Shown: positions 5,391 to 22,124, counted from the stretch's first letter. The stretch: 64,000 bases of DNA from an uncultured Clostridia bacterium (GCA_948676835.1 CAPOZU010000001.1:193250-257249), one strand, 5' to 3'. A program made the numbers and translations. Notes: a model not told the origin generated them from the sequence alone.

Positions 5391-5419
5391 TGAAATTTTT
5401 GGAGCGTCCCTAAATTTCA
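5391..5419. repeat. 29-bp palindrome copy A (TGAAATTT..GTCCCTAAATTTCA family)
   Basis: tgaaatttttggagcGTCCCTAAATTTCA. One of 6 copies in the window. Confidence 0.85.
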
Positions 5420-5422
5420 CAA

Positions 5423-5457
5423 AAAATGAGTCCAAATTTTAAGTTTGAACTCATTTT
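5423..5457 (-). terminator. hairpin terminator after the BceB-like permease
   Basis: AAAATGAGT/ACTCATTTT 9-bp stem. T-run on the minus strand. Confidence 0.6.
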
Positions 5458-5465
5458 ACTTTAAC

Positions 5466-5494
5466 TGAAATTTTTCACCTGTCCCTAAATTTCA
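5466..5494. repeat. 29-bp palindrome copy B
   Basis: tgaaatttttcacctGTCCCTAAATTTCA. Its terminal TCA is the reverse-complement TGA stop of the permease gene. Confidence 0.85.
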
Positions 5495-7876
5495 GTTTTC
5501 TCTTAATCTATCAACAATAGATTCTTTATTAAATATTTTTATACAACATATTGCAATAATAGATGGTACAAGAATTGAAATTACAAAATATAGAGCTAAT
5601 GCTAAAATAGGTAATTTAAATTCCATATAATACATGCCAAACTCTTCGAATATTTTTATCGCAAGATATGCAAAGCTTGGTCCTATAATACTACTTGCTA
5701 AGCAGTTTGGTACTGCAAGCCATATATTTTCAAAAATAATCATTTTATTTACTTGCTTTTTTGTCATTCCCATTGATTGTAATATAGCAATTTCTTTTCT
5801 ACGTGTAACCATACTTGTAATAACTGTATTTATTAAATTAATTATACTAAATATAATTATAAAAATTGAAATTCCTATAAGTCCATTTTTAAAACTGTTT
5901 GCTGTTTGCTCAGCTTGTTCATGCCACTCAGAATATGTCATACATGATATATCTTCATATTTTTTGACAATATTTTTAACTTTATTATCTATATCTTCAT
6001 TATAAATATGATTTTTAGTAGCAACTTCTAAATATCCTGTACTATCAACTCCTTCTGAAATTTGATCATATACATTTTGTGGCACTAATATCCAGCCCAT
6101 TGCTCTTGCATATTTAGAAAATCCTGAATCTCCAATTCCACCAATAGTTAGTTCTATTTGTTTTTCTCCAGCATTAAAATAATGAAATGTTACTTTATCA
6201 CCAACTTTAGGAGTATAACCATACACTTCTTCAAAAACATCACTATAACTTAAATATATTTCTCCATTTTCTGTTAATTCATTTATGTCACCTGTTCCGC
6301 TTTTTAAAGATTTCTTCATTGCTTCTTGCAAGTTTTCATTCATTGATTCAATTTCTTCATTAATAACATCTTTTTTAGTATCTATTTTTAAAAAGTAAGT
6401 TTTTCTAGCATTTATATAATCTACTTCTTCTAAATTTTCTAACTCATCTTTTACTTTTGTAAGATTATTTCCATTACTTATTAAATTATACAATCCATTT
6501 TGACTTTCTTCCATAGATTCTTTTGAAAAATTCAAATAATATTCACAATTTCTAAAATAACCATTTCTCGCATATTTTTCAGTATTTATTGAACCTGTAA
6601 AAGTTAATGCTCCAATAAATAATGCTCCACCTATAATTAAAGATATAAGTGTAATATTAGTCTTTTTTCTGTTTTTGTAAAATTCAATTTTTCCTAAAGA
6701 ATTTGGAGTTAAATTTCTACATAATTTATTTGAAGCCTTAACAATTTCGTCATTTCCTGTATATCTTAAGCCTTCTATTGGTGATACATTACTTGCTCTT
6801 TTGGCAGGTTTTGTTACAGATATAAAAACTGATATTGTTCCTAAAACACCTGATACAACCGCTAATTTTAGAACATTTAAAATATTCCATCCATTTGAAC
6901 TTATAACATATGAAATTATACTACCAATTACAATCCCTAACGGTATTGCTATTTTACAATATTCAAGTCCTTCAATTTTAATAAGTTTTCTAATTTGCTT
7001 TTTAGACATTCCAATAGTTCTCAATTGTGCATACTCTTTAACTTTAGATGATACTGATAAATAAAATATACTGTAAATTACAATTCCACCTATTATAAGA
7101 ACTACAATACTTAATCCTACAAACATTTGAAGTTCTGACATATTTATAGAAAAAGTATCAACAAATTTATTATTTGGATTTACATTTTTTCTTTCAATAC
7201 CATTAGTTTTTCCAAGCTCATAAAAGAAATCTTTAATATATGTTGTACTTGGTATTCTCATATTTGGAGATACTTTTATTAAAGCATCAAGTGTACTGTT
7301 TTTAAATACTATTCCTGATTCTGAATATTCTTTTGAAAATAATGTAGGATAATATATAGATTTTCCATAATCAATAAAACCAGATATAATAAACTTTTCT
7401 CCTAATATCTCAATAGTCTCTCCTATATTTTCTTCTATTCCCAATTCTTTTGCTACTAATACATCTATAACAACTTCATTTGGTTTTGTAGGAAAATTTC
7501 CTTTTGAAAGTTTCTGAGTGTTTATTTCCTGAACTTTATAATCATAATATATTGGTTTAATTTTTATATTCCCAATTTCTTTTTCAAAACCACTTCTATA
7601 TTCCATCACACAGCTTACATTTTCATTAGATTTTAATCCATCTATTTGCTCTTTACTTACATCATAATAAGCACAATCTTGCATTCCTTTTACAATTTCA
7701 CGTTCATATGTTTTGTAATTTAATGATGCAAGTCCAAGTACCATAATAAAGCAGATTGCTAAACTTATAGTTACTGTCATAAAAATATTTTTTATTTTAG
7801 ATTCTTTTAGTGAAGCTTTTGCAATATTATGAATTACTTTGTTATTATTATTTTTTAATAAATTCATTTTCCCCAC
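5492..7876 (-). CDS. BceB-type ABC transporter permease (FtsX domains, large extracellular loop)
   Basis: 794 aa with multi-TM FtsX-like architecture. Follows the ATPase gene with a 5-nt gap. Confidence 0.7.
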   Translation of the reverse strand: MGKMNLLKNNNNKVIHNIAKASLKESKIKNIFMTVTISLAICFIMVLGLASLNYKTYEREIVKGMQDCAYYDVSKEQIDGLKSNENVSCVMEYRSGFEKEIGNIKIKPIYYDYKVQEINTQKLSKGNFPTKPNEVVIDVLVAKELGIEENIGETIEILGEKFIISGFIDYGKSIYYPTLFSKEYSESGIVFKNSTLDALIKVSPNMRIPSTTYIKDFFYELGKTNGIERKNVNPNNKFVDTFSINMSELQMFVGLSIVVLIIGGIVIYSIFYLSVSSKVKEYAQLRTIGMSKKQIRKLIKIEGLEYCKIAIPLGIVIGSIISYVISSNGWNILNVLKLAVVSGVLGTISVFISVTKPAKRASNVSPIEGLRYTGNDEIVKASNKLCRNLTPNSLGKIEFYKNRKKTNITLISLIIGGALFIGALTFTGSINTEKYARNGYFRNCEYYLNFSKESMEESQNGLYNLISNGNNLTKVKDELENLEEVDYINARKTYFLKIDTKKDVINEEIESMNENLQEAMKKSLKSGTGDINELTENGEIYLSYSDVFEEVYGYTPKVGDKVTFHYFNAGEKQIELTIGGIGDSGFSKYARAMGWILVPQNVYDQISEGVDSTGYLEVATKNHIYNEDIDNKVKNIVKKYEDISCMTYSEWHEQAEQTANSFKNGLIGISIFIIIFSIINLINTVITSMVTRRKEIAILQSMGMTKKQVNKMIIFENIWLAVPNCLASSIIGPSFAYLAIKIFEEFGMYYMEFKLPILALALYFVISILVPSIIAICCIKIFNKESIVDRLREN

Positions 7877-7881
7877 TCCTT

Positions 7882-8553
7882 CTAAAAAATCTTTCCATCT
7901 TCAATTCTTATAATTCTATCTGCCATTTGAGCAATTTCTTCATTATGGGTAATCATAACTATTGTTTGATTAAAAGCTTTACTAGTATTTTTTAAAAGCC
8001 CTATTACTTCTAATGATGTTTTTGTATCAAGATTTCCAGTTGGCTCATCTGCTAAAATTATAGATGGTTTAGTTGAAATTGCTCTTGCTATTGCAACTCT
8101 TTGTTGTTGACCACCAGATAATTTATTAGGCATTGTTTTAACTTTTGAAGTTATTCCTAACAAATTAATAATTTCATTTATAAAATCTTTATCTATTTTA
8201 TTTCCATCTAATTGAATTGGAAGTACAATATTTTCATAAACATTTAACATTGGGACTAAATTATAATTTTGAAATATAAATCCTATTTGTCTTCTTCTAA
8301 ATATTGTTAATTCTTCATCTGACATTTTTGAAATTTCATTTCCATCTATTTCAATTTTTCCATAACTTGGATTATCTAAACCACCAATCATATTAAGTAA
8401 TGTTGATTTACCACTTCCTGAAGTTCCTACTACTGCTACAAATTCTCCTCTATTTATTTCTAAAGAAACTCCGTCTAGTGCTTTTACTAAAGCTTCATCA
8501 CTACCATAATACTTTTTTAAATCTTTTACTTTTAAAATACTTTCCATTTTCAT
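7882..8553 (-). CDS. ABC transporter ATP-binding protein (BceA/MacB-type)
   Basis: GTSGSGKST Walker A, LSGGQQQRVAIARA signature, ILADEPTGNLD Walker B. Start refined to the ATG after AGAGAGG RBS; the ORF track gives 8583. Confidence 0.8.
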   Translation of the reverse strand: MKMESILKVKDLKKYYGSDEALVKALDGVSLEINRGEFVAVVGTSGSGKSTLLNMIGGLDNPSYGKIEIDGNEISKMSDEELTIFRRRQIGFIFQNYNLVPMLNVYENIVLPIQLDGNKIDKDFINEIINLLGITSKVKTMPNKLSGGQQQRVAIARAISTKPSIILADEPTGNLDTKTSLEVIGLLKNTSKAFNQTIVMITHNEEIAQMADRIIRIEDGKIF

Positions 8554-8617
8554 TACCTCTCTTCCATGGTTTAATAATATCATACTAATATATCAAAAAA
8601 GTTTCAGTTCAAAAAAA

Positions 8618-8641
8618 GATTGTTTCAAAACTGAAACAATC
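8618..8641 (-). terminator. hairpin between histidine kinase and ABC ATPase (terminator/attenuator ahead of the transporter promoter)
   Basis: GATTGTTTCA aaa CTGAAACAATC perfect stem followed by a T-run on the minus strand. Confidence 0.5.
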
Positions 8642-8643
8642 TT

Positions 8644-9537
8644 TTAAAGTGGCAAAAATATTGAAAATGTGCTACCTTCATTTACTTTTGATTTTACTTT
8701 TATATATCCATTTTGGTTTTCAATAATCTTTTTGCTCAAATACAATCCAATTCCCACACCTTGAATATCCTTAACTTTTCTTTCTCTAAAAAATCTTTTA
8801 AAAATATTAGTTATATTTTCTTCATCAATACCCATTCCATTATCTATAATATCTATTTTTAAAAATGTTTCTAGTTTCTCTAAATTAATAATAATCTTTC
8901 CATTTGGATTTGTGTATTTTATTGCATTTTCAAGCAGATTGCAAATTGCTTCTAATGTCCATTTCTTATCATATTCTAATATGCAATTTTCCCCGATTAT
9001 CTTAATTTCTATATTCTTATTTTCTGCTAATATTTCAACTTGTTCTTTTGCTTGATTTATGCATTCCATAATTTTTGCGCTTTGTTTATTTAAAACAATC
9101 ATGTTAGTTTCAAGTCTTGACATTTTAGTTAAAGAATCCATTAGAAATTCTAGTTTATCTACTTGATTTGATATTATATTCAAAAACTCTTTTTCTTTAT
9201 CTTTTGGTAAATCGTTATTAATAATTGTATCGCTGTACATTCTAATATTTGAAATTGGAGTTTTTACTTGATGAGTAATATCAGACACCATTTGTTCTAC
9301 TTCAGCTTTTGCTCTATTTGATTTTTCTGTTTTTCCTTCAACTACTTCACTTAATTTATATAATTTTGAATCTATTTTTGAATCTAAAGTTTCTTTATTA
9401 ATATTATCTTTTTCATATCTCCCATTTATAAAATTATCAATGATATTTAGAATTTTATTTGTGAATTTTAAATATTTATATCTAAAAAATAAATACATTA
9501 ATATTATAGAAACGATTAATATAATTATTTGTAACAT
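8644..9537 (-). CDS. sensor histidine kinase, intramembrane-sensing BceS-like (no extracytoplasmic domain)
   Basis: N-terminal TM only. H-box ITHQVKTPISN, then a HATPase_c region with GxG motifs. Confidence 0.75.
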   Translation of the reverse strand: MLQIIILIVSIILMYLFFRYKYLKFTNKILNIIDNFINGRYEKDNINKETLDSKIDSKLYKLSEVVEGKTEKSNRAKAEVEQMVSDITHQVKTPISNIRMYSDTIINNDLPKDKEKEFLNIISNQVDKLEFLMDSLTKMSRLETNMIVLNKQSAKIMECINQAKEQVEILAENKNIEIKIIGENCILEYDKKWTLEAICNLLENAIKYTNPNGKIIINLEKLETFLKIDIIDNGMGIDEENITNIFKRFFRERKVKDIQGVGIGLYLSKKIIENQNGYIKVKSKVNEGSTFSIFLPL

Positions 9538-9539
9538 TT

Positions 9540-10212
9540 TTACTCCTCTAAGAACTTATATCCTACACCATAAATTGTTTTTATATATTTATCATTTTCA
9601 TCATCCAATTTTGAACGTAATCTACTAATATTTAATGTTAAAGTATGCTCATCTACAAAATTTTCTTTACTATCCCATAATTTTTCAAGTAATACTTCTC
9701 TTGTAAGCACTGTATTTTTATTTTTAACAAAAATATTTAATAAATCAAATTCAGTTGGAGTTAAACAAATAATCTCGTCATTCTTCTTAAGAATTCTATT
9801 ATCAAAATCGATAATCAGTTCTTTGATTTTGATAATATTTTCTTGTTTTTTGTTATTTCTATTTAAGATGACTTCTATCTTTTTTAATACAATTTTTATA
9901 TTAAATGGTTTTGTTATATAGTCATCTGCCCCGAACTTCAAAACCTTCTAAAATTTCTTCATCTAAGTTATGGGCTGTTAAAAATATAAATGGGATATTG
10001 TATTCTTGCTTAATTGTATTTGCAAATTCAAAACCATTTCCATCTGGTAAATTTACATCTAATAAAATTAAATCTATTTTAGTTTGTTTTATAATTTCCT
10101 TTGCATCTTTTATGCAATATGTGCTTAATGCTTTCCAATTGTTATTTTGAATATTGAAACATATTCCCGCATTTAACATTTCATCATCTTCTATAACTAA
10201 TATGCTAGACAT
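9540..10212 (-). pseudogene. OmpR-family response regulator interrupted by a +1 frameshift (receiver 9922-10212, winged-helix 9540-9941)
   Basis: Two overlapping ORFs, a receiver domain (LILLDVNLPDGNG) and an OmpR wHTH (GVGYKF). Deleting one base in the GGGG run near 9935-9945 restores EGFE-F-GADDYITKPF. Confidence 0.6.
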
Positions 10213-10224
10213 CGTTTTCTCCTT

Positions 10225-11007
10225 TTATTTAGTTTGACTTTTAAACTCAATATCTAATTCTATAGGGCAATGATCACTTCCCATTACTTCTGGGTGAATT
10301 TTAGCATCTATAATATTTTCCTTTATTCTATCAGAAGTAATAAAATAGTCTATTCTCCAGCCTATATTTTTTTCTCTAGCTCTTCCCATATATGACCACC
10401 AAGAATAACTATCTCCTTTTTCTGGATATTTATATCTGAAAGTATCTACAAAACCTGAATTTAGTAAATCAGTCATTTTACCTCTTTCTTCATATGTAAA
10501 ACCTGAATTTCCTACATTTGATTTAGCATTTTTTATATCTATTTCATTATGAGCGACATTTAAATCTCCACAATATATAACTGGTTTTATTTTATCTAAT
10601 CCTTTTAAATATTCTCGGGTTGCATCTTCCCAAACCATTCTATATGGAAGTCTTTCCAGTTCTCTTTTAGAATTTGGTGTATAACAATTTACTAAATAAT
10701 AATTTTCAAATTCTAAAGTAATTAATCTACCTTCATTATCATGTTCTTCTATTCCTAATCCATAGTTAACACTTATTGGTTCGCTTTTCGTAAAAATTGC
10801 AGTTCCTGAATATCCTTTCTTCTCTGCACTATTCCAATATTGATAATAACCTTCAAATATTGCATCCATAATCATATCTTTTTGTTCTAATTGCATTTTA
10901 GTTTCTTGTACACAAAATATATCTGCATCTATTTCATCAAAAAAATTTTTAAATCCTTTATTTACTACGGCTCTTAATCCGTTAACATTCCAAGATATAA
11001 GTTTCAT
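10225..11007 (-). CDS. xth: exodeoxyribonuclease III
   Basis: 260 aa with MKLISWNVNGLRA start and a C-terminal SDHCPIELD AP-endonuclease motif. Confidence 0.8.
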   Translation of the reverse strand: MKLISWNVNGLRAVVNKGFKNFFDEIDADIFCVQETKMQLEQKDMIMDAIFEGYYQYWNSAEKKGYSGTAIFTKSEPISVNYGLGIEEHDNEGRLITLEFENYYLVNCYTPNSKRELERLPYRMVWEDATREYLKGLDKIKPVIYCGDLNVAHNEIDIKNAKSNVGNSGFTYEERGKMTDLLNSGFVDTFRYKYPEKGDSYSWWSYMGRAREKNIGWRIDYFITSDRIKENIIDAKIHPEVMGSDHCPIELDIEFKSQTK

Positions 11008-11019
11008 ATTTCCCCCTAT

Positions 11020-11715
11020 TTATTTAGAAATTAAATCTTTAACAACTTCCCCCGCAATTATTAATCCTGCAACTGATGGAACAAAAGATATACTTGTGGG
11101 TGGTTGTTTTTTTCCCTCTTCTTTTGGTATCACTTTTACTGGCTCTTCTTTTGAATATACAACTTTCAATTTTTTTATGCCTCTTAACTTTAATTCTTTT
11201 CTCATTACTTTAGCAAGTGGACATACTTCTGTTTTATAAATATCTGTTACTTCAAATCTAGTTGGGTCTAATTTATTACCAGTTCCCATGCTTGATATAA
11301 TTGGAATATTTAATTTATTCGCACGCATTACAAGTTCAATTTTTGCTGTAACAGTATCTACTGCATCTACAATATAGTCTACTGTTTCATCTAATATTCC
11401 TTCACTTTCTGGCATAAAAAATTCTTCATGAATTTTCACTTCTGCATCTGGATTTATTTCAAGAATTCTTTCTTTGCTAACTTCAACTTTAGCTTTTCCA
11501 ACTGTTTTATGAGTAGCAATTATTTGCCTATTTAAATTAGTTATATCTACTTTGTCTTTATCAATTAGTACAAATTTTCCTACACCTGCTCTTGCTAGTC
11601 CCTCAACAACATAAGAACCAACTCCTCCAATTCCAAATATTGCTACTTTTGATTTATTTAATTTTTTAACATTTTCTTTACCAATTAATAATTCTGTTCT
11701 TGAAAATTGCTCCAT
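11020..11715 (-). CDS. tcdA: tRNA threonylcarbamoyladenosine dehydratase (ThiF/E1-like)
   Basis: GIGGVGS nucleotide-binding motif, ThiF-fold, and the typical TcdA C-terminus. Confidence 0.7.
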   Translation of the reverse strand: MEQFSRTELLIGKENVKKLNKSKVAIFGIGGVGSYVVEGLARAGVGKFVLIDKDKVDITNLNRQIIATHKTVGKAKVEVSKERILEINPDAEVKIHEEFFMPESEGILDETVDYIVDAVDTVTAKIELVMRANKLNIPIISSMGTGNKLDPTRFEVTDIYKTEVCPLAKVMRKELKLRGIKKLKVVYSKEEPVKVIPKEEGKKQPPTSISFVPSVAGLIIAGEVVKDLISK

Positions 11716-11787
11716 CTTTTTTCACCTCTAGTAATATTTATATCAAAAAAGCAGATAACTTTCAATTATCTGCTTTACATTTGTTAA

Positions 11788-11991
11788 TTAATTTGTGAAA
11801 AAGTCTAATATATTCATTCCCGCATCTGTTACTGATTTATATATTTCTGTGTATCCGCATTTAGTGCAGCTTACTGTAATAAATCTTTTATTTTGAACAT
11901 CAAATATCTTAGCAAAATTTCCTCCAGTTGCTTGGAATTGGTCTTTTTCATATTCTGCATTTCCACATTTCACACATTTCCAATCTGACAT
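11788..11991 (-). CDS. zinc-ribbon domain protein
   Basis: 67 aa with two CxxC pairs (CVKCG, CTKCG). Confidence 0.5.
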   Translation of the reverse strand: MSDWKCVKCGNAEYEKDQFQATGGNFAKIFDVQNKRFITVSCTKCGYTEIYKSVTDAGMNILDFFTN

Positions 11992-12198
11992 AATAAATCC
12001 TCCTCTATGTAATTATACTATTATTATATCAGAATTCATATTAATATTTTATTAAAATAATTTATTCTCAAGTTTATAAATATGAAAATATTATCAAAAT
12101 TGTAATATTATTGTTGATTTTTTATGTAAAATGTCTTATAATTTTGTATGCTAGTTATGATTTGTACAGCAGTAATTTTAAATATTATATAAAGGAGT

Positions 12199-13230
12199 GT
12201 GAATTTATTTTTTATGAATAGGGTAAAAAATCGTACAAAAGATGATTCAAAAACCCTAAAGATTATAAAAATTATTTTAATTATTCTAATAGTAACTATA
12301 ACTTTACTATATATTACATGTAAACCTGCTTACAAAGTTATTATAGCAGGAGAAACTATAGGATTAGTTACTAACAAAGAAATTATTACACAAGAAATCA
12401 ATGTGTATTTAAGTGAAACTAACGAAAATATAACACATCGAGAATTAAATGTTTCTCCTGAATATAAATTTCAACTTATAAGAAAAGATATAAAAACAGA
12501 TGAAACTTCTGTTTTATCAACTGTAAAAGATAATATAACTACAACTTATAAAGCTTACTCAGTAAACTTTAATGGTGAACAAAAGGCAATTATTGCAAAT
12601 CAAGAAGAGGCCAACAATTTAATAAATGAAATTAAATCTGACCTTAATGAAGAAATTGAATTAAATTTTGATATTGTTGAAGTTTATTCTGATGAATTTA
12701 ATGTATCAAGTGAAGATTCTGCAAAGCAATCTCTAAATGAAGTTAAAATAGAGAAAGTTTCAGAATATGAGAAGAAAAAAGCTGAGGAAAAAGCTGCAAA
12801 AGAAAAAGCAGAAGCCGAACGTAAAGCAAAAGAAGCAGCAGCAATCACTCCTAATACTTGGAGATTAGAAATTCCTAAAATTGGTTTAAGAGGAAATATT
12901 GCAGAAGGAACTGATGCAAATGTTTTAGAACATTTAATTGGTCATTTTTCAGAAACAGTTGCTGATGGTGGAAATGTCGGTTTAGCTGCACATAATGCTG
13001 GACATAGCGCAAATTACTTTGCTAGAATAAATAGTTTAGGAGCAGGTGATTTAATTTATTATATACATGGTGGAGTTAAGAAAACTTATTCTGTTGTTTC
13101 AAAAGATATAATAAGTGTTTACGATTGGAGCAAACTAGGTGCAACAGCAGATGAAAGAGTAACTTTAATAACATGTGTAAGCGGTGATACAGAAATAAGA
13201 TTATGTGTTCAAGCTGTAAGAGTAGATTAA
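12199..13230 (+). CDS. sortase family transpeptidase with N-terminal TM anchor and K/A/E-rich linker
   Basis: Catalytic His region (LAAHNAGHS), TLITC active-site Cys motif, conserved Arg near the C-terminus. Confidence 0.75.
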   Translation: MNLFFMNRVKNRTKDDSKTLKIIKIILIILIVTITLLYITCKPAYKVIIAGETIGLVTNKEIITQEINVYLSETNENITHRELNVSPEYKFQLIRKDIKTDETSVLSTVKDNITTTYKAYSVNFNGEQKAIIANQEEANNLINEIKSDLNEEIELNFDIVEVYSDEFNVSSEDSAKQSLNEVKIEKVSEYEKKKAEEKAAKEKAEAERKAKEAAAITPNTWRLEIPKIGLRGNIAEGTDANVLEHLIGHFSETVADGGNVGLAAHNAGHSANYFARINSLGAGDLIYYIHGGVKKTYSVVSKDIISVYDWSKLGATADERVTLITCVSGDTEIRLCVQAVRVD

Positions 13231-13240
13231 TATTAAAGAA

Positions 13241-13264
13241 GGGACTGTGAAAAGTCCCTTCTTT
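13241..13264. terminator. bidirectional hairpin between sortase (+) and XRE gene (-)
   Basis: GAAGGGACT gtgaaa AGTCCCTTC stem flanked by T-runs. Confidence 0.7.
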
Positions 13265-13269
13265 TTGGT

Positions 13270-14241
13270 TTATTCTCCATATATAATTTTATCTTTGTAT
13301 TTTTCAAGTGGGTCTTCTATTTCTCTAAGACCATTCTGTACATAATTATAATTATATGATGATAAATTATGAAATCCACGATATTCTGATGTTACATCAT
13401 AATATTCTATTAAGTAATCATTATTAAGTTTAATTTTTACAATATATTCATCTGAACGTGCTCTGATTTCACGATTTATAATAGAAACATAAATTCTTGG
13501 GTCTATAGAAGCAAGAAAAATATCTTTAAAACTTGAAGGAATTGCTGATAAGGTAGTTTCTCTTATTATGTTTTCTGACTTATCATAATATTCTTCTTCA
13601 TTATCTATATTATTCTTCATATCTTCGTATTCATACATATCTGTTTCATTATCATAGTTTAGCATATATGAGATTTTTTTATTCTTATCTATAAATTGTA
13701 TACTATATGAATCATAATTTACTTTCCCATTTTCATAATCTTGCTCGTCACTTAAAACTCCAGATGTTAGTTCTATTTTATTTCCAAATTTATAAGTATG
13801 CCAAAATGTTCGCACTACCGCATTATGCTCACTAGTATGTACAAAGCTAAGATTCATAAAATAGTTTTCTTCTGAAAAACTATTAGCTATTAAATAAAAT
13901 CTGTAAAGTACTATAAATTTATATATACAAACTAGCGAATATAGTAGTAATATTAATAAAAATACTTTTAGAATAATTTTTCCTTTATGTTTTTTATTCT
14001 TTGTTGTAACTTCTGAAATTCGTTCCATATTTTCTACATCATCATCTAACAAATATTCATAAGTTACATTAAATTTTCTAACTATTTCTTGAATTTTATC
14101 TATATCTGGTTTTGATTCATCATTCTCCCACTTAGAAACAGCTTGTCTTGATACATTAATTTCGTTTCCAAACTCTTCTTGTGAAAGACCTTCTTCTTTC
14201 CTTAATTTAATTATTTTCTCATTTAACTTCATTTGTATCAC
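13270..14241 (-). CDS. membrane-anchored XRE-family HTH regulator
   Basis: N-terminal HTH_XRE (LSQEEFGNEINVSRQAVSKWE), central TM segment, about 200-aa C-terminal extracytoplasmic domain. Confidence 0.6.
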   Translation of the reverse strand: MIQMKLNEKIIKLRKEEGLSQEEFGNEINVSRQAVSKWENDESKPDIDKIQEIVRKFNVTYEYLLDDDVENMERISEVTTKNKKHKGKIILKVFLLILLLYSLVCIYKFIVLYRFYLIANSFSEENYFMNLSFVHTSEHNAVVRTFWHTYKFGNKIELTSGVLSDEQDYENGKVNYDSYSIQFIDKNKKISYMLNYDNETDMYEYEDMKNNIDNEEEYYDKSENIIRETTLSAIPSSFKDIFLASIDPRIYVSIINREIRARSDEYIVKIKLNNDYLIEYYDVTSEYRGFHNLSSYNYNYVQNGLREIEDPLEKYKDKIIYGE

Positions 14242-14342
14242 CTTCCTTTCAATTTAATTATGACTTGCAATTCATAATTAAATTATACTAAAATTCCATG
14301 TTTTATTCTACCATTTTTACCTTGATATCTGTCAACTAGACC

Positions 14343-14654
14343 TTACATTTTAAATTTACTATATTTATTTACATCAATTTTATGTGATAATAGTTCTTGC
14401 AGATTATTTTTTCTTATTAATTCTTCTTTTTGGGATTTTGATAAGGTCTTTTTTATATGATATTCTAGTTTTGAAGCTGATACTCTATCTTCTGCTGTCC
14501 AAGCACTTTCGATTTTCTTTACACTATGATTTAAAGTGTATTTTGCACATTTTTTATTTTTAGAAAGATGCTCTTCAAATCTTCTTTCTAAATTTGTAGT
14601 TATACCTGTATATAAAGAGTTATCTTCGCATCTTAACATATAAATATAATACAT
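14343..14654 (-). CDS. GIY-YIG nuclease family protein
   Basis: YYIYMLRCEDNSLYTGITTNLERRFEEH is a canonical GIY-YIG motif. Confidence 0.7.
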   Translation of the reverse strand: MYYIYMLRCEDNSLYTGITTNLERRFEEHLSKNKKCAKYTLNHSVKKIESAWTAEDRVSASKLEYHIKKTLSKSQKEELIRKNNLQELLSHKIDVNKYSKFKM

Positions 14655-14699
14655 TTTCTTACTCCTTTTTATACAGGTATAATAACATATTTTATATTT

Positions 14700-16256
14700 T
14701 TAATCTATAATTTCTAAATTATTAATTTTAGCTGTTTGACTATCCTCAGTTGGAATTTTCAAGTTAACTGGCTCTCCTACTTTTTCAGTTACACAACCAA
14801 ATAATAGTGTAAATTCTAAGTTATCTAAATTATCTAAAGACATTTTGTTTAAGTTAAGGCCAGTTGCCCTATCTAGATTTCTAGAGAAAATAATTTTATT
14901 TTCTTTACTATTAACTCCTTTAATTTCTTCTTTAATGGCATTAATATAATTCATATCATCTATTTTTTCTCTGATTATTATTTTCCATTCATCACCTAAA
15001 GAACCATTTTCATTATAACTAAATACAATATTTTCATCATTTGCATCTATTTTTTCAACTGTAAATGTTCCACCTAAGCCACTTTTGGCAGAATATTTGC
15101 TATCTCCTACTTTTACGGGATACCATGTAGCTTTATTATACATTTCTTTCTCTTCTGACTGGCCATTTTCGTTAACATTTCTATCTTCAAAAATTCTACT
15201 TTTTACAGGAGTTACCTTTAAATTAGCACTATCATTTTCAGAACTAATTAATATTATAAAGTTTTCTTCTTGCATTATTTTATCTGTTTCTTTAATTTCT
15301 GTTTTTTCTTTCAAATTTCCGTTCTCATTTACATATATTTTCTTGCCAGCTGTACTTCCATCATAAATAATTTTTGATATAGAATTATCATTCTCATCTG
15401 TAACTAAAAAGCTAGTATATTTCATTGAATTTTCATTGTATTCTTTATATGTTATATCTTCAACTATCTTTTTAGCTGTTATATATGTTTGAAATTTAGT
15501 ATTAGCAATTTTTTCAATAATAACTTTTGTATGATCATCAATTTTTTGCTCAGATATTACAGATTCATTTTCATTTCCATTTAATTCGACTTCAGATTTT
15601 ATAGTTTTTCCTATTTTTATAGCCTCATTATCTCCATTTTCAAATCCGTGGATTGTTCCAGAAGAAATTTCATCTATTGTTATTTCTAAATTCAAATTAT
15701 TTTTATTTACATCCATTATATTTATTACTTGTGTGTATACATATTCGTTTTCAGAAATTTTATCAACATATTCATTCACATTTGTGATTTCTTTTGAATT
15801 TACAAAAACTTTTTCCCCAACCCTTAAGTCATATCCCAATCCTTCAACATATTCTATTGGTTTTGTCATCTTTTCAAAAGCTTTATTTTTAAATTTAATT
15901 TTATACTCAGCAATAATATATGCTTTGTCTCCTGCCATACTTTCTAAAGTTATGTTACAATATTCATTTTCTATTGATTTATTAACTTCTGTTCTACTAC
16001 TTTCATAATTTTCACTTAATTTTAGAAATCCCATTTTTTCCATGTTTATATTTCCACTTATTCCAGCATATGCAGTCACACTTAATGTTCCTACAATTAA
16101 TACTGTAGCTACTTTTTGTAAGCTAATTAACCCATGTTTCTTTTTAGGCTTTATTTCTTCAAAATTATCCGCAATATCACTATTTTTTAAATTTTCATGT
16201 TTTAAATAAATTGCATCTTTAAAATACTTTCTTTTTTCTTCTATATTTTTATTCAT
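14700..16256 (-). CDS. putative anti-sigma factor (DUF4179-like): cytoplasmic N-terminus, one TM, large extracellular domain
   Basis: Overlaps the upstream ECF sigma gene by 8 nt. Single TM (LIVGTLSVTAYAGI) after a roughly 45-aa cytoplasmic part. Confidence 0.5.
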   Translation of the reverse strand: MNKNIEEKRKYFKDAIYLKHENLKNSDIADNFEEIKPKKKHGLISLQKVATVLIVGTLSVTAYAGISGNINMEKMGFLKLSENYESSRTEVNKSIENEYCNITLESMAGDKAYIIAEYKIKFKNKAFEKMTKPIEYVEGLGYDLRVGEKVFVNSKEITNVNEYVDKISENEYVYTQVINIMDVNKNNLNLEITIDEISSGTIHGFENGDNEAIKIGKTIKSEVELNGNENESVISEQKIDDHTKVIIEKIANTKFQTYITAKKIVEDITYKEYNENSMKYTSFLVTDENDNSISKIIYDGSTAGKKIYVNENGNLKEKTEIKETDKIMQEENFIILISSENDSANLKVTPVKSRIFEDRNVNENGQSEEKEMYNKATWYPVKVGDSKYSAKSGLGGTFTVEKIDANDENIVFSYNENGSLGDEWKIIIREKIDDMNYINAIKEEIKGVNSKENKIIFSRNLDRATGLNLNKMSLDNLDNLEFTLLFGCVTEKVGEPVNLKIPTEDSQTAKINNLEIID

Positions 16257-16806
16257 TATAACAGTCTGCCTCCTTCATTAATATTTGTTTTAATTTTTTT
16301 CTTCCTCTATGAATTAATGTTTTTACTTGTGATAAAGACATTCCCAATATACTACAAATTTCTTTATACGATAATTCTTCTATATCAACTAAATATATTA
16401 GCTGATTTTGTGGTTCGGGTAGTCTATCTATTGCCAATTTTAATTGTTTACTTTTTTCTTTACTAAAAACAGCATCTTCTATTTCCTCTTCAGTAAAAAG
16501 ATATTCATTATCTTGCAGATATGAAATTTTACTTTCCTTTTTTATATAATTTATTGCTTTACTTTTAGAAATTGTATAAAGATAAGTTTTTAACGAATAT
16601 TTAGAATCATATTTTTCTTTATTCATAAGAATATAAACAAAAACATCTTGTGCCAAATCTTCTGCTACATCTATTCTTTTCACAAATCTATATATAAAAT
16701 AAATTATCTTTTCCATATACTTATCTACTATAAGCTCAAAAGATTCATTATCACCATTTAAAAACTTCTTATATAGTTTTTTATCTTCCTCCATTTTTTC
16801 CTCCAT
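16249..16806 (-). CDS. RNA polymerase ECF-type sigma-70 factor
   Basis: Sigma-70 region 2 (DLAQDVFVYI) and region 4 (LSYKEICSILGMSLSQVKTLIHRGRKKL). Confidence 0.75.
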   Translation of the reverse strand: MEEKMEEDKKLYKKFLNGDNESFELIVDKYMEKIIYFIYRFVKRIDVAEDLAQDVFVYILMNKEKYDSKYSLKTYLYTISKSKAINYIKKESKISYLQDNEYLFTEEEIEDAVFSKEKSKQLKLAIDRLPEPQNQLIYLVDIEELSYKEICSILGMSLSQVKTLIHRGRKKLKQILMKEADCYNE

Positions 16807-16880
16807 TTGAATATAAGATCTTATTTCTAATTATAATACAATTTTGAAATACTAAAAGTTGCAGTTTTAAAAAAAATAAA

Positions 16881-16909
16881 TGAAATTTAGGAACGTTCCT
16901 TAAATTTCA
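16881..16909. repeat. 29-bp palindrome copy C
   Basis: tgaaatttaggaacGTTCCTTAAATTTCA, upstream of the ECF sigma gene. Confidence 0.85.
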
Positions 16910-16927
16910 TTTCTACCATAAAAAACA

Positions 16928-17103
16928 CATAAAAATATTTCATATTATTTTATTATACACCTTGGTGTCGCAACTCGCTAATTGTTAATTATAAAATAAA
17001 TTTTATAATTAACAATTGTAAGATAGTTGCTCCAAATCGCACTCATTTCATTCGTTTGGTCGCTTACGCGGTGTATTTAAAAATAATATGAAATATTTTT
17101 ATG
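16928..17103. repeat. nested inverted-repeat element (34-bp outer IRs plus 18-bp perfect inner palindrome), MITE-like or structured RNA
   Basis: Left arm cataaaaatatttcatattattttattatacacc pairs with the reverse complement of ggtgtatttaaaaataatatgaaatatttttatg. Inner palindrome aattgttaattataaaat/attttataattaacaatt at 16981-17018. Confidence 0.7.
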
Positions 17104-17124
17104 AAATTACATTAAATAGTAAGA

Positions 17125-17153
17125 TAAAATTTAAGGAACGTCCCTAAATTTCA
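17125..17153. repeat. 29-bp palindrome copy D
   Basis: taaaatttaaggaacGTCCCTAAATTTCA. Its terminal TCA is the reverse-complement TGA stop of the ABC-2 permease. Confidence 0.8.
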
Positions 17154-18389
17154 TTCAACTTGATGTCTACTATAAATTTTTTTTGCTAATATTAATGAAA
17201 TAATCATTATGCAAATATAAGAAAAAATCGTCATTGTAGGTAAATCAAAAACAATACTTCCAAGCTTATAAGATACCATTTTTGTGAAATTTGAATAAAT
17301 TGCATTATATGGCATTAAAAATAGTATTTTATTTATAATTCCAAATCCAGATTTCACACTTAAAAATACTGGTAACATTACAATACAAATATCAATTACT
17401 AATGTACTTATAGGATTTTTTATTTTTGAAGATAAAAACAATGTTAACCCTACAATTCCGAAAAGTACTGCATAAGAAATAAATATATTATATATAAGTG
17501 ATTGTGCAAATGTTAAATTATATGGACTTAATATATTTAAAAGCTGTATTGGAAGATTCCCACCTTCTGTACCAAACATTAATAATACAGCCAATATTGC
17601 GAATATTAAATATATTGCAAATACTATACTAGCAAATATATATGAAGCAATTACTTTGGCTGTTGCTCCTTTACTTTTTCCATATTTAGTAGTTAGTAAT
17701 ATTTTATCTGTTCCGTTTTGATATTCTCCTGAAAAAACTGATGCTATACATATACAAACTGCAATCAATCCAATAATAAGCATTTCATAAGTACTATATA
17801 AATTCGAATATCCAAAATAAAAGTCATATTCATAAGGTATATTTACATTTTTAGATTTTTCTATCCAATATTCTTTTTCCTTTTCTGTATATGTTCTTCC
17901 TTTATAATCTTGACTTGAAACTATAAGTTCTTCTATTCTTTTTTCTCTATTTTCATAAAAATCTATTTTATTTTCTAGATTCAATTGAGATAATCCATTT
18001 AAATAATTATCTCCATATACATGATTTATATTGGTTAACAAATTAAGTCTGTTATTTAAATATTTATTATAAACATCTCTACTAAACTCTTTTTCTCCAT
18101 AACTATTTATAACAATATTATCTGGATTGTTATTCAATTCTTGCAAACTTCTTATTTCATCTACAATTCTTTCATTTGTTAGTATTCCTGAAATTTCTTT
18201 TATCTGTTCTTTTCTAAGTCTTATAGCTTCTTTTCCTTTATAAGATTTTCCACTTTCATCTGTTGCTAAAAAGTCTGTTCCTGATAAAGAAAATAATAAA
18301 ATTATTAGAAATAAACAGCTTATAATTACAACAATATTCATCTTTTTATTAAATAACTTTTTTAATTCGTATTTTACTAACTCTCCCAT
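17151..18389 (-). CDS. ABC-2 type exporter permease
   Basis: 412 aa with an N-terminal TM, a roughly 170-aa extracytoplasmic domain, and a C-terminal 5-6 TM bundle. Confidence 0.6.
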   Translation of the reverse strand: MGELVKYELKKLFNKKMNIVVIISCLFLIILLFSLSGTDFLATDESGKSYKGKEAIRLRKEQIKEISGILTNERIVDEIRSLQELNNNPDNIVINSYGEKEFSRDVYNKYLNNRLNLLTNINHVYGDNYLNGLSQLNLENKIDFYENREKRIEELIVSSQDYKGRTYTEKEKEYWIEKSKNVNIPYEYDFYFGYSNLYSTYEMLIIGLIAVCICIASVFSGEYQNGTDKILLTTKYGKSKGATAKVIASYIFASIVFAIYLIFAILAVLLMFGTEGGNLPIQLLNILSPYNLTFAQSLIYNIFISYAVLFGIVGLTLFLSSKIKNPISTLVIDICIVMLPVFLSVKSGFGIINKILFLMPYNAIYSNFTKMVSYKLGSIVFDLPTMTIFSYICIMIISLILAKKIYSRHQVE

Positions 18390-18405
18390 ATTACAAATTT
18401 CCTCC

Positions 18406-19272
18406 TCACTTTTCTTGAAAATAAGCCAAATACAAATCTTCTAAATTGGGCTCAATATTAACAGCAGTTAAGTTTGGCTTTTCATCACTTACAATTCTAA
18501 GCTCTACAACATCTTTTTCTTGATGAATATTTATAATACAGTATTCGCGATTTAAAGTATCAACCTCTTGTTTACTATAAGCTAAACATTTCCAAACTTT
18601 ACCTTGTAAGTTTTGTGTAAGTTCTTCTGGTGTTCCTGATAATATTTTTTGTCCCTCTTTCATAACAATAATTTTATCTGCAATAAATTCTATATCAGAT
18701 ACAATATGAGTAGATAATATAACAATTTTATCTTTTGAAAAGCTACTTATTAGATTTCTAAATTTTACTCTCTCTTTAGGATCAAGCCCTGTAGTTGGCT
18801 CATCTAATATTAGTATTTTAGGATTGTTAAGCATTGCTTGTGCAATTCCTAATCTTTGTTTCATTCCACCTGAAAATGTTTTTACTTTTTGTTTTCTTTC
18901 TTTTTCTAAATTTACAATCTGTAATAATTCATTTACTCTTGATTCAGCTTTTTGTTTTGATAGACCTTTTAGAGCTGATATATACATTAAAAAGTCATAG
19001 GCTGTAAAATCCGGATAATATCCAAAATCTTGTGGCAAGTATCCAATAAGAGCTCTATAATCTTCCCCTAATTTTTGAATATTTTTTCCATTATATTTAA
19101 TTTGACCTGATGTAGGCTTTTGAATATCACAAATCATCCTCATAAGTGTTGTTTTTCCAGCTCCATTTGCTCCAAGTAATCCATAAATACCTTCATTTAA
19201 TTTAGCTTCGAATCTATCTACTGCTATTTTATTTTTATATTGTTTAGTTAACCTATCTATTGTAAGTTCCAT
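18406..19272 (-). CDS. ABC transporter ATP-binding protein
   Basis: GANGAGKTT Walker A, FSGGMKQRLGIAQA signature, ILILDEPTTGLD Walker B. Confidence 0.85.
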   Translation of the reverse strand: MELTIDRLTKQYKNKIAVDRFEAKLNEGIYGLLGANGAGKTTLMRMICDIQKPTSGQIKYNGKNIQKLGEDYRALIGYLPQDFGYYPDFTAYDFLMYISALKGLSKQKAESRVNELLQIVNLEKERKQKVKTFSGGMKQRLGIAQAMLNNPKILILDEPTTGLDPKERVKFRNLISSFSKDKIVILSTHIVSDIEFIADKIIVMKEGQKILSGTPEELTQNLQGKVWKCLAYSKQEVDTLNREYCIINIHQEKDVVELRIVSDEKPNLTAVNIEPNLEDLYLAYFQEK

Positions 19273-20000
19273 ATGAAATCTTCCTCCTTTTCACATATTT
19301 CATAAACATTTTTTACAAAATAATATATAGCTATTATTAATAAACCTGCCCATATTAAAGTATTTGAGGTTTCATAAACATAAGGAAATTTTATATCAAT
19401 TATTAATAATATCGCATTCACAAAAAGCATAACAATAAAGTTTATTAATTCATTTGATTTGTGCTTTTGTAATCGAATTATTCCAATATTAATAGTATTT
19501 GTTATCATAAGTGGCACTAAAAAATATAAAATTAACAAGGAAATTGAATATTTAAAATAACTTCCAGCTATAATTGCAAATATAGTCATAATACATAAAT
19601 TTACAAATGCATATATTATCAATTTAATCAAAATTAACTCTTTTAAATTCAATTTACAACTTATTTCAATTTCATACATATTATATTTAAAGCTTTTTTC
19701 TAATTCTATGATTTGAAGAAGTGCAAGTATTGGCATGACTGTTGATAGTATTAATCTTGTTTTTTCAAATTCGGTAGAAGTTATTATATTTATTCCTAAT
19801 ATTAACAATATAAATTGAAAAATAATTATTTTTTTACTTAGGAATGGAATATATCTTTTTACTTTTTCAAAATAATTTTCTTTTACTTGTATATCAATTT
19901 TCTCTATTTCAATTTTTAGATTTTCTATTGCGTCATTTTTCTTTTCCTCATCTATTTGAATTGATTTATTTTCATAAAAAAAACTTTTCAAATCTTTCAT
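19257..20000 (-). CDS. polytopic membrane protein, putative anti-sigma factor translationally coupled to the sigma gene
   Basis: ATGA overlap with the sigma gene stop. Roughly 55-aa cytoplasmic N-terminus then about 6 TM helices. Confidence 0.4.
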   Translation of the reverse strand: MKDLKSFFYENKSIQIDEEKKNDAIENLKIEIEKIDIQVKENYFEKVKRYIPFLSKKIIIFQFILLILGINIITSTEFEKTRLILSTVMPILALLQIIELEKSFKYNMYEIEISCKLNLKELILIKLIIYAFVNLCIMTIFAIIAGSYFKYSISLLILYFLVPLMITNTINIGIIRLQKHKSNELINFIVMLFVNAILLIIDIKFPYVYETSNTLIWAGLLIIAIYYFVKNVYEICEKEEDFIWNLQ

Positions 20001-20533
20001 TAATAAAAATCCTCCTTCCTAAAACTTTTATTTAATTTTTCTAAGCCTTGTTTTAGTCGTGATTTAACAGTTGGCACTTTTTCATCAAGTATTTTAGCTA
20101 TATCTCTAATTTTTAAGTCTTCATAATATTTTAAAATAATTACTTCTTTTTGTTTTTCTGGTAATTCACTTAAAGCCTTCATAATTATATCTTTTTGTTC
20201 AAAAGTTCCCATTTCTTTTAAAGTGCTTTCGTCAGAAGTAGCGTTATCTAATTCTTCAAACTGCGTATTATTCTTATAAAAATAACTATTACATACATTT
20301 ATTGCAATTGTAACTATATAATTTTTTAGTTTTCCTTTATGTTCATAATTTTCTATATATTTAATTACTCTTAAAAATGTTTCTTGTGTTAAATCATGAG
20401 AAATCGAGGCATTTCCTGTTTTGTAGTAGCAAAATTTATAAATATTATCATAGTATTTTTGAATTAATTCTTCTAGTAATTCTTTTTCACCATGCTGTAT
20501 TCTATAAATTAGTTCTTTATCTTCCAAAAACAA
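20000..20533 (-). CDS. RNA polymerase ECF-type sigma-70 factor
   Basis: Region 2 (HDLTQETFLRVIKYI) and region 4 (LKIRDIAKILDEKVPTVKSRLKQG). Confidence 0.75.
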   Translation of the reverse strand: MFLEDKELIYRIQHGEKELLEELIQKYYDNIYKFCYYKTGNASISHDLTQETFLRVIKYIENYEHKGKLKNYIVTIAINVCNSYFYKNNTQFEELDNATSDESTLKEMGTFEQKDIIMKALSELPEKQKEVIILKYYEDLKIRDIAKILDEKVPTVKSRLKQGLEKLNKSFRKEDFY

Positions 20534-20608
20534 TACCTCCTTCTTTCATAAATGCATTTACATATAATATAACCTTAAAAATGAAAAAAAAGATTTAAAA
20601 TTTTCTAA

Positions 20609-20637
20609 TGAAATTTAGGGACGTTCCTCAAATTTCA
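20609..20637. repeat. 29-bp palindrome copy E
   Basis: tgaaatttagggacGTTCCTCAAATTTCA. Confidence 0.85.
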
Positions 20638-20665
20638 TTAGCAAAACTTTGATAAAAAATCAAAA

Positions 20666-20692
20666 TCTCGCTAACACTAACTGCTAGCGAGA
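20666..20692 (-). terminator. asnS terminator hairpin
   Basis: TCTCGCTA...TAGCGAGA stem. T-rich on the minus strand. Confidence 0.65.
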
Positions 20693-20703
20693 CATTTTAA
20701 TTA

Positions 20704-20732
20704 TGAAATTTGAGGAACGTCCCTAAATTTCA
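20704..20732. repeat. 29-bp palindrome copy F, abutting the asnS stop codon
   Basis: tgaaatttgaggaacGTCCCTAAATTTCA. The asnS TAA stop begins at 20733. Confidence 0.85.
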
Positions 20733-22124
20733 TTAAAATTCACAATTTTTTGGTGTTCTTGGGAAAGGAATAACATCACGAATATTTTGCATTCCTGTGA
20801 TGTACATTATTAATCTTTCAAATCCAAGACCAAATCCTGAGTGAGGAACACTTCCATATTTTCTTAAATCTAAGTACCACCAATAATCTTGTTCATCCAT
20901 ATTTAAATCTTTTATTTTGTTTTGTAAAATTTCTAAACTATCTTCTCTTTGGCTTCCACCAATTATTTCTCCAATTCCTGGTGCTAAAAGGTCAGCTGCT
21001 GCAACAGTTTTTCCATCTGGATTTAATTTCATGTAAAATGCTTTTATCTCTGCTGGATAATCTGTTACAAATACGGGCTTTTTAAATATTTGTTCACTTA
21101 AATATCTTTCATGTTCTGTTTGAAGATCTGTTCCCCAAGATACTTTATATTCAAATTTATCGTTTACTTTTTCTAATTCTTTTACAGCATCTGTATAAGA
21201 AATTCTTCCAAATTCTGATTTTACTAAATTATGAAGTCTTTCAAGTAATGTTTTATCTATAAAATTATTGAAAAATTCCATTTCTTCTGGACAGTTTTCT
21301 AAAACATAATTTATAACATATTTTAGCATATTTTCTGCTAAATCCATATCATCTTTTAAATCTGCAAAACAAATCTCTGGTTCTATCATCCAGAATTCTG
21401 CTGCATGTTTTACAGTATTTGAATTTTCAGCTCTAAATGTTGGACCAAAAGTATAAACATTTCTAAATGCAAAAGCATATGTTTCAACATTAAGTTGTCC
21501 ACTAACTGTAAGATGAGCTGGTTTTCCAAAAAAGTCTTTTGAAAAATCTACTGTTCCATCTTCTAATTTATCAACATTTTGTAAATCAAATGTGTTTAAA
21601 TTGAACATTTCTCCTGCACCTTCTGCATCACTTCCTGTGATTATTGGTGTATGAACATATACAAAATTATTTTCTTGGAAAAATTTGTGTATGGCATATG
21701 AAGCTGCAGAACGAACTCTAAATACTGCATTAAATGTATTTGTTCTAGGTCTTAAATGAGCTATTGTTCTTAAATATTCCATTGAATGTCTTTTCTTTTG
21801 TAATGGATATTCTGGATCTGAAAGTGCAATAATTTCAACACTTTTTGCTTTTACTTCAAAAGGTTGTTTTGCATTTTCAGTTTTTACTAAATCTCCAATA
21901 ACTGTAATTGATGAGCTTAATGTTAACTTACAAATTTCATCAAAATTACTTAAAGTGTTATCAAAAACAACTTGTAAATTTTTGAAGAATGAACCATCAT
22001 TAATCTCAATAAATCCAAATGTTTTAGAATCTCTAACTGTTCTAACCCATCCAGATACTTTTATTTCTTTTGAATAATAATTTTCTGATTTTCTATATAA
22101 ATCTTTAATTATAACACTATCCAT
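20733..22124 (-). CDS. asnS: asparagine--tRNA ligase
   Basis: 463 aa class II aaRS with N-terminal OB anticodon-binding domain and motifs 1-3 (FRVRS, GFERLIM). Confidence 0.9.

Follow-up and report, generated by a model that had tools for sequence, protein, structure and literature searches.

The window analyzed here is a 64,000-nt stretch of DNA from an uncultured Clostridia bacterium (GCA_948676835.1, CAPOZU010000001.1:193250-257249; 25.8% GC), in the first 21 kb of which six copies of a 29-nt palindrome lie between operons. The genes adjoining the copies encode a MerR-type regulator, an FtsX-type permease, two extracytoplasmic function (ECF) sigma factors, an ABC-2 permease, and AsnS, and all are on the minus strand (Table 1). 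From comparisons with related genomes, we conclude that the six palindromes are very probably members of a repetitive extragenic palindrome (REP) family, that their inverted pairs are doublets like those known as REPINs or bacterial interspersed mosaic elements (BIMEs), and that the family is paired with a Y1 (HUH) transposase of the REP-associated tyrosine transposase (RAYT) or TIRYT type.

An earlier note on this DNA had described the sites as near-perfect palindromes, and all six were found where it had placed them. They follow the formula TGAAATTT-N7-GTCCCTAAATTTCA, and no further copy occurs in the 64 kb. The dyad is real, but the symmetry is not complete, since the motif has an orientation and consists of TGAAATTT, a variable 7-mer, an invariant GTCCCT, and AAATTTCA. 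The combination TGAAATTT-N13-AAATTTCA occurs five times in the window, with a gap of 13 nt only, and the sixth copy begins with TAAAATTT. With up to two mismatches allowed, the 14-mer GTCCCTAAATTTCA gave 7 matches in the window against 0.88 expected, a number reached by none of 100 shuffles, and a profile built from 78 distinct family members found the six sites only (E = 4e-10 to 2e-6 in 64 kb). Copies 1 to 6 are oriented +, +, -, +, -, and +; two of the pairs are inverted, and only the one at 5391/5466 is direct. The sequence of copy 5, read on the opposite strand, is identical to that of copy 6. Single 29-mers fold on their own, with energies of -8.6 to -15.5 kcal/mol as RNA.

Table 1 Coordinates of the palindromes, the associated hairpins, and features of transposase loci in other genomes (L numbers designate the loci compared).
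Feature	Position	Strand	Context
Palindrome copy 1 (TGAAATTT TTGGAGC GTCCCT AAATTTCA)	5391..5419	+	Shortly before the MerR -35 box and 80 nt before the MerR start codon; nhmmer E 3.6e-10
AU-rich hairpin, then UUUUUUG	5423..5457	-	Separates copy 1 from copy 2; stem of 14 bp when 5380-5505 is folded
Palindrome copy 2, core TTCACCT	5466..5494	+	Ends in TCA, which on the - strand is the TGA stop of the FtsX-type permease gene (5492-7876)
Palindrome copy 3, core AAGGAAC, GTTCCT variant	16881..16909	-	74 nt upstream of the ECF sigma gene 16249-16806
Doublet spacer, 215 nt	16910..17124	.	Nested palindrome with 24-nt outer arms at 16928-17103
Palindrome copy 4 (TAAAATTT AAGGAAC GTCCCT AAATTTCA)	17125..17153	+	Gives the TGA stop of the ABC-2 permease gene 17151-18389
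REPIN-like inverted doublet	20598..20743	-	44-nt arms, 91% complementary; one 146-nt hairpin, -74.6 kcal/mol, z -16.6
Palindrome copy 5	20609..20637	-	75 nt upstream of the ECF sigma gene 20000-20533
Intrinsic-terminator-like hairpin, unique host sequence	20665..20693	-	12 pairs, 5 G-C, then TTTGATTTTT; inside the doublet; positive in the terminator consensus scan
Palindrome copy 6, core GAGGAAC	20704..20732	+	Abuts the TAA stop of asnS (20733-22124)
Stem GAAATTT / AAATTTC	L117		
Stem GAACTTT / AAAGTTC	L119, L126		
Stem GAACTTTT / AAAAGTTC	L121		
Stem GAACTTT(T) / AAAGTTC	L122		
Stem GGGAT / ATCCC	L124		
Stem GAAATTT / AAGTTTC	L125		
Shared upstream motif GGGGGCAAA(A/T)	L037:2240-2325, L101:6390-6466, L117:1236-1304, L119, L122, L125, L126		130 nt upstream of transposase start

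One copy of each pair sits at the stop codon of the upstream gene (offset -3 for the FtsX and ABC-2 permeases, 0 for asnS) and the other stands upstream of a regulator gene, as the earlier note had observed. This arrangement had raised the idea of an operator family, in which a dimeric regulator would bind the sites and co-ordinate envelope-stress modules composed of ECF sigma factors, MerR, and ABC exporters. The motif is indeed a dyad, and the three copies located 74-80 nt upstream of regulator genes have ~17 nt of A/T-rich flank in common. However, half of the window copies lie on stop codons, and across the family copies are found between convergent genes, are under-represented between divergent ones, and number dozens per genome beside unrelated genes. 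Furthermore, the MerR promoter (TTGACT-17-GATACT) has a dyad of its own (ACTTGGAGCTAACTCTAAGT), which is kept at the related locus L073. Orthologues of the sigma gene at 20000-20533 were collected from 56 metagenomic loci (L128-L183, 240 kb in total); none of these carried a copy, a comparison that is not a strict empty-site one because no orthologue had asnS upstream. The promoter block is retained at the 56 loci, preceded by an A/T-rich palindrome, the left arm of which is replaced by copy 5 in the window. The operator idea thus fails on placement, copy number, and the comparison with orthologues, and we regard it as extremely improbable. The window copies are very probably passengers between operons and not regulators of the ECF or MerR genes.

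Several observations were made on these promoter regions themselves. The MerR promoter-like sequence (window 5343-5371, minus strand) carries its dyad in the spacer, as is usual for MerR promoters, and does not depend on the 29-mer. The conserved block of the ECF sigma operon (window 20534-20608) comprises the palindrome AGATTTAAAATTT-AATA-AAATTTTAAATCT, a T-run, and the promoter. Upstream of this palindrome the sequence varies between contigs, which could mean that the sigma/anti-sigma/ABC module moves or occupies a hot spot of recombination. We rejected a reading of GGAAC...CGTC as an ECF-type promoter, given that the two boxes are adjacent and not ~16 nt apart, and the consensuses of cre, CodY, LexA, Fur, and parS sites do not fit the 29-mer.

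An exact-pattern scan of one genome per species found the palindrome in more than 115 8-kb stretches. Among the matches listed, nearly all came from five metagenome-assembled genomes (MAGs), namely three uncultured Clostridia of 26-27% GC (CAOTKV, CAORJJ, and CASYFC) and two bins labelled 'Roseburia' of 38-39% GC. The closest relatives of the window were CANEHB and CASYFC, with 79-93% nucleotide identity across shared genes. In sampled 8-kb blocks, a tolerant matcher found at least 73, at least 45, and at least 22 copies in the three low-GC genomes and at least 31 and at least 23 copies in the 'Roseburia' bins; these numbers are lower bounds, and the variation seen within the family is biased downwards because the matcher needed near-consensus arms. 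We assign the family to a clade of uncultured gut Clostridia with low GC content. The pattern was present in 1 of 2.9 million viral contigs, which makes a phage origin unlikely. The chief 7-nt cores were TTCGAGC, AAGGAAC, TTGGAGC, and TTCGACT in the low-GC genomes and AGGCTRC in the 'Roseburia' bins. Conservation ended sharply at the 29-mer, with the flanks adding only AAAR ... YTTT, and an A-run before and a T-run after many copies lengthen the palindrome to ~37 nt.

The copies in relatives are dispersed but not randomly placed. Based on simple long open reading frame (ORF) calls, 5 of the 73 copies in CAOTKV and none of those in the other low-GC genomes lay inside ORFs. Divergent intergenic regions held 8 copies against 25.8 expected by length, and convergent regions contained copies as well. 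When the neighboring genes were co-directional, the copy overlapped the upstream stop codon in 34 of 106 cases and was located within 11 nt of it in 57 of 106, with overlap peaks at -3 (the TGA of the copy) and -10 (TAG within TGAAATTTAGGGAC). Most copies of the family are single 29-mers. Among 30 close pairs, the polarity '-+', with the GGGAC ends pointing outward, was found 23 times and the polarity '+-' once. The two arms of a doublet differed at 1.71 positions on average, compared with 3.52 for random pairs from the same genome (1/10,000 resamplings).

A high copy number, a lineage-specific distribution, and inverted pairs downstream of genes are also features of DNA uptake sequences. The DNA uptake sequence (DUS) of Neisseria and the uptake signal sequence (USS) of Haemophilus are over-represented and often occur as inverted pairs that form terminators. 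However, the 29-nt motif is far longer and much sparser than uptake sequences and is nearly missing from coding DNA, and the dedicated, copy-flanked transposase described below offers a better explanation, which leaves an uptake function with an almost negligible probability.

Two further observations concern variants of the repeat. The 'Roseburia' MAGs (L004, L015, L030, L104, and L109) carry the variant CGAAATTTAGGCTRCGTCCCTAAATTTCA, often in tandem arrays with a 27-nt period and a 2-nt overlap of units. A partial tandem duplication of the right end, 11-20 nt long (e.g., ...GTCCCTAAATTTCA-CCTAAATTTCA), follows the copies at L003:3769, L012:6404, L037:1011, L047:693, L055:3691, L100:2965, and L108:6367, and could have been left by slippage or by a nested insertion at the repeat. 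These duplications prompted a target-site rule, with insertion 3' of TTAGG, which was discarded: the flanks show only AAAR/YTTT, and CCTA was found in 5 of 140 copies.

The sequences between paired copies argue against a copied composite unit. In the window, 16870-17165 folds as a whole into a 296-nt hairpin (-109.4 kcal/mol, z -14.8), and its 215-nt spacer had no second copy in the sequences compared. Rfam gave chance-level matches only for 16800-17250, with no family for the spacer, and across the whole window only tRNA-Pro reached the gathering threshold. The hairpin at 5423-5457, which has fewer than three G-C pairs and was therefore missed by the terminator scan, is the probable host intrinsic terminator of the ABC/FtsX operon. 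Across the family, doublet spacers ranged from 6 to 317 nt and every one was different. The earlier suggestion that pairs bracket a terminator holds for ~40% of the doublets, which enclose the apparent terminator of a host gene; about half have a short spacer without a hairpin of its own. The related proposal that the unit carries its own terminator is at best partly supported, because the middles of the doublets are unique host sequence.

These spacers also bear on the possibility that the doublets are miniature inverted-repeat transposable elements (MITEs), that is, deletion derivatives of a DDE-type insertion sequence moved via terminal inverted repeats with target-site duplications. Units of 124 and 273 bp with inverted ends of 29-44 nt would suit this explanation, as would the gene-adjacent position, which resembles that of Correia or RUP elements, and the CCTA...CCTA that flanks one filled site. 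However, a MITE multiplies as a complete unit of constant length and duplicates its target, whereas here only the 29-mer arms are repeated around a unique middle, so the doublet is not a copied unit. In addition, single 29-mers are the majority of copies, the flanks show no consistent target duplication, and the sole repeat-flanked transposase found is of the Y1/HUH and not of the DDE type. We therefore consider a MITE origin very unlikely.

A further indication of a REP system comes from this transposase. Four ORFs in related genomes (L027:1343-2137, L101:6467-7228, L037:2326-3093, and L030:772-1512) are each bracketed by copies of the palindrome. In a screen of the ORFs at the loci examined, with Y1-transposase sequences as queries and used as a lead only, each genome gave one match in the sampled blocks, and this match was the copy-bracketed ORF. 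The proteins are ~255 aa in size and match Pfam Y1_Tnp with 47-50 bits (cut-off 23). Their best NCBIfam model is in all cases REP_Tyr_transpos (NF047646), for which the 'Roseburia' protein (L030) scores 90.2 against a cut-off of 80. A total of 1237 homologues were found at E < 1e-5. In an alignment of 47 homologues, H60, H62, Y120, N124, and P125 are invariant, Y120 lying in YIHNNPVKA (more fully C-I-N-Y-I-H-N-N-P-V-K-A), and the C-terminal ~110 residues end in the helix-turn-helix (HTH)-like motif T-Q-K-E-I-A-x-x-L-G-V-N-R-x-K-I.

Structural comparison pointed in the same direction. An AlphaFold2 model reached a pLDDT (predicted local distance difference test) score of 90.5, with the ~110-aa helical extension modelled with high confidence. 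The top Foldseek match in the PDB was 4ER8, E. coli TnpA_REP with a REP hairpin (E = 3.4e-7, target template-modelling score 0.72), and matches 2-30 were IS200/IS605-family transposases (IS608 and ISDra2). A phmmer search of the transposase against PDB sequences gave no match, and a profile of it matched 4ER8 weakly (E = 0.026), together with weak matches to HTH regulators. The C-terminal region gave weak Sigma70_r4 matches only (E = 0.006-0.009, under the cut-off), and some homologues have precomputed matches to PF04545, PF13384 (HTH_23), or PF13545. The gene keeps its neighbors in the order NMO-RAYT-GntR-ABC (L117, L037, and L027) or ruvB-PMT_2-RAYT-queH (L122, L125, and L126), suggesting that it is inherited vertically, as described for RAYTs (PMC5581495). 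Judged from its sequence, the cognate enzyme is a predicted single-copy, vertically inherited transposase with a putative C-terminal HTH domain.

The transposase genes share a motif, GGGGGCAAA(A/T), ~20 nt upstream of the ribosome-binding site (Table 1). At several loci the -35 box (TTGATA or TTGACA) begins where the upstream copy of the palindrome ends (...TTTCAC-TTGATA), and the repeat may be part of the control region of the transposase gene.

The repeat and the enzyme also vary together. For seven homologues with 63, 57, 50, 49, 44, 44, and 41% identity, related palindromes flanked the gene in all seven cases, and where copies were found on both sides they had the same outward polarity as the doublets. 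Counting all transposase loci examined, 11 of 11 were flanked by the motif or by a co-varying relative. Stems vary across the seven homologue loci (Table 1), and GGGAC(G) is retained. Compensatory changes of the stem around an invariant unpaired core are what should be expected of a recognition site composed of a hairpin and a tag. The earlier REP/REPIN-like reading of the palindromes is thus strongly supported by their high-copy dispersal in relatives, intergenic placement at 3' ends, inverted doublets of one polarity, and a Y1 transposase with flanking copies, a TnpA_REP-like fold, and co-varying palindromes around its diverged homologues.

Signs of mobility were indirect. One site has a copy in CAOTKV and CASYFC and none in CAORJJ, the two states differing by 35 nt that lie between CCTA repeats. 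Two species have the 29-mer in opposite orientations at another orthologous site. Where the window has two copies and a hairpin, its relative L073 has only one copy, with no counterpart of copy 2; the permease ends at the same residue in both, its stop being the TGA of the repeat in the window and TAA in L073. From these differences and by analogy with known REP systems, we infer that the repeats have been mobile.

The family resembles the REP/BIME/REPIN and RAYT (TnpA_REP) systems of E. coli and Pseudomonas (Nunvar 2010; Bertels and Rainey 2011, PMC3116915; 4ER8) in several respects. As in those systems, the repeats are imperfect palindromes of 20-40 nt that are present outside genes in dozens to hundreds of copies, for the most part on the downstream side of a gene; inverted doublets fold into long hairpins, and a single-copy Y1/HUH transposase, whose fold is closest to 4ER8, lies between repeats. 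There are differences as well. The invariant part is the central CGTCCC and the stems are A/T-rich, unlike canonical REPs; the enzyme is ~90 aa longer than TnpA_REP and has an HTH-like C-terminal domain; the host is a low-GC member of the Clostridia; and many copies provide the stop codon of the upstream gene. The IS200/IS605 elements (IS608 and ISDra2) share the HUH/Y1 core and the recognition of subterminal hairpins in single-stranded DNA. However, they are multi-copy and autonomous, with a left end unlike the right one and a target of four or five nucleotides, whereas here the gene is single-copy and syntenic and it is the short hairpin that multiplies. Correia/NEMIS elements of Neisseria, RUP, BOX, ERIC, and bcr1 are, like the family here, small intergenic inverted-repeat units that are co-transcribed and form stable hairpins.

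With regard to its C-terminal extension, the enzyme may be compared with the TIRYTs (Di Nocera et al. 2013, PMC3733652), RAYT-like proteins that have a C-terminal HTH (Bac_DnaA_C, HTH_23, or HTH_28) and are flanked by inverted repeats with GGGGWSAS in common. Some TIRYT ('TIRtron') repeats form moderately abundant families and are arranged as dimers (PMC3733652). Y1 proteins with a C-terminal HTH constitute TnpA_Y1 subclass 2.1, which was equated with TIRYTs and for which no REP-like neighbors were found (Quentin et al. 2018, PMC6006769). GGGGWSAS is present exactly in the flank of L121 (GGGGACAG) and at 6 of 8 positions in the window family (AGGGACGC); the repeats flanking L117 and L124 have GGGGACGT. 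Any likeness to TIRYTs and subclass 2.1 would lie in the flanking repeat and the C-terminal extension, and the difference lies in flanks that are short, self-complementary, high-copy hairpins. Neither PMC3733652 nor PMC6006769 contains a case from Firmicutes, and PMC5581495 mentions only the occurrence of Group 1 RAYTs in Clostridia. Full-text literature searches for the motif strings returned no relevant paper, and one for REP-associated transposases in Firmicutes or Clostridium returned nothing relevant. Work on REP/REPIN-RAYT systems has been almost wholly in Proteobacteria, with no REP family of Clostridia described in the literature searched. The present family would therefore place a repeat-enzyme pairing in abundant uncultured low-GC gut bacteria and give REP-like partners to an HTH-bearing Y1 class reported to lack them. 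The invariant CGTCCC tag is unusual, and the natural co-variation of the stems amounts to ready-made specificity mutants for biochemistry. For annotation, the palindromes should not be taken for the operators of a regulon, and the repeat defines many gene ends in these genomes.

Several points weigh against the REP assignment. The window has no transposase gene, and the link between repeat and enzyme comes from related genomes. The three low-GC transposases score 63-66, under the REP_Tyr_transpos cut-off of 80. Canonical REPs have a 5' GT[AG]G tag (PMC3733652, PMC6006769), whereas neither end of the 29-mer has GTAG or GTGG, the flanks being AAAR and YTTT. The 'Roseburia' bins share an identical CGTCCCTAAATTTCA half with the low-GC family while their transposase (L030:772-1512) is only 30% identical, which is a poor fit to strict co-evolution. 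The filled/empty pair is also compatible with slippage between the 4-nt CCTA repeats, and a clean insertion footprint was not found in cross-species alignments of intergenic regions, most of which are too diverged. Finally, simple REPIN transposition does not account for the ~40% of doublets that enclose a host terminator. One possibility is that inverted pairs around host terminators arise by hairpin-templated inverted duplication, which would fit near-identical arms such as those of copies 5 and 6.

Some of the same evidence could also point to structural elements maintained by the host, with transposition rare or extinct. The palindromes would then serve as bidirectional terminators, stabilizers of mRNA 3' ends, operon insulators, or binding sites for the HTH of a domesticated transposase. 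The inter-operon placement overlapping stop codons, the A-run/T-run flanks, and the terminator hairpins bracketed by ~40% of doublets agree with such a role, as do a single-copy transposase at a conserved syntenic locus with an extra HTH-like C-terminal domain and the fact that most sites keep their position between CAOTKV and CAORJJ. However, the commonest variant (core TTCGAGC) alone forms a weak 8-bp A-U stem, hairpin strength does not explain the invariant GTCCC, and orthologous loci manage without the element. Host maintenance is on balance unlikely, and it shares ground with the REP/REPIN explanation instead of ruling it out. The copies may have a side-effect as insulators or terminators.

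As a REP/REPIN system, the family might work as follows, by analogy with E. coli TnpA_REP and IS608/ISDra2 (PMC6006769). The enzyme would bind the hairpin of the 29-mer in single-stranded DNA at the replication fork, recognize the unpaired invariant CGTCCC tag, and cut and rejoin the DNA there. Such reactions would seed new copies or doublets and lead to occasional excision or inversion. Copies would survive where they do little harm, i.e., behind genes, around terminators already in place, and ahead of the next promoter. In transcripts they should act as 3' stem-loops and contribute to termination or to the stability of the mRNA. About a third of them provide the TGA or TAG that closes the upstream reading frame. 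A bolder extension, which we consider quite improbable as a whole, is that a HTH-bearing Y1 transposase, of a class reported not to be REP-associated, keeps a true REPIN-like population in gut Clostridia that the host has co-opted as a modular 3'-end cassette. Such a cassette would supply stop codons to about a third of the neighboring genes, its inverted copies would be built around pre-existing terminators (e.g., by hairpin-templated inverted duplication), and the HTH domain would read the double-stranded 29-mer, resulting in genome-wide operon insulation.

The rest of the window contains probable mobile elements. A probable integrative mobilizable element of 18.3 kb occupies 25868-44291 at tRNA-Pro (25868-25943) and is bounded by a 43-nt direct repeat with 93% identity (25932-25974 and 44249-44291). 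It carries two tyrosine integrase genes beside the tRNA (26166-27335 and 27803-28981), a Mob_Pre relaxase gene (37376-38341), and HTH_3 repressor-like and RadC/DUF3846 genes. No copies of the palindrome were found in this island; their absence from the integrated mobile elements of the window fits the view that REPs mark core DNA of long residence. Between the integrase genes lie two direct repeats (27323-27451 and 27682-27811), which are 84 and 49 nt long, have 88-96% identity, and are 360 nt apart. Segments of the island recur inverted downstream (33249-33598, 56143-58552, 37770-38334, and 61925-62489), a ~243-nt repeat is present in three copies, and the relaxase gene overlaps with an inverted repeat of 565 nt (79%). 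The pattern suggests a second, related mobile element in the 44-64 kb region, which would explain why all copies of the palindrome lie in the first 21 kb.

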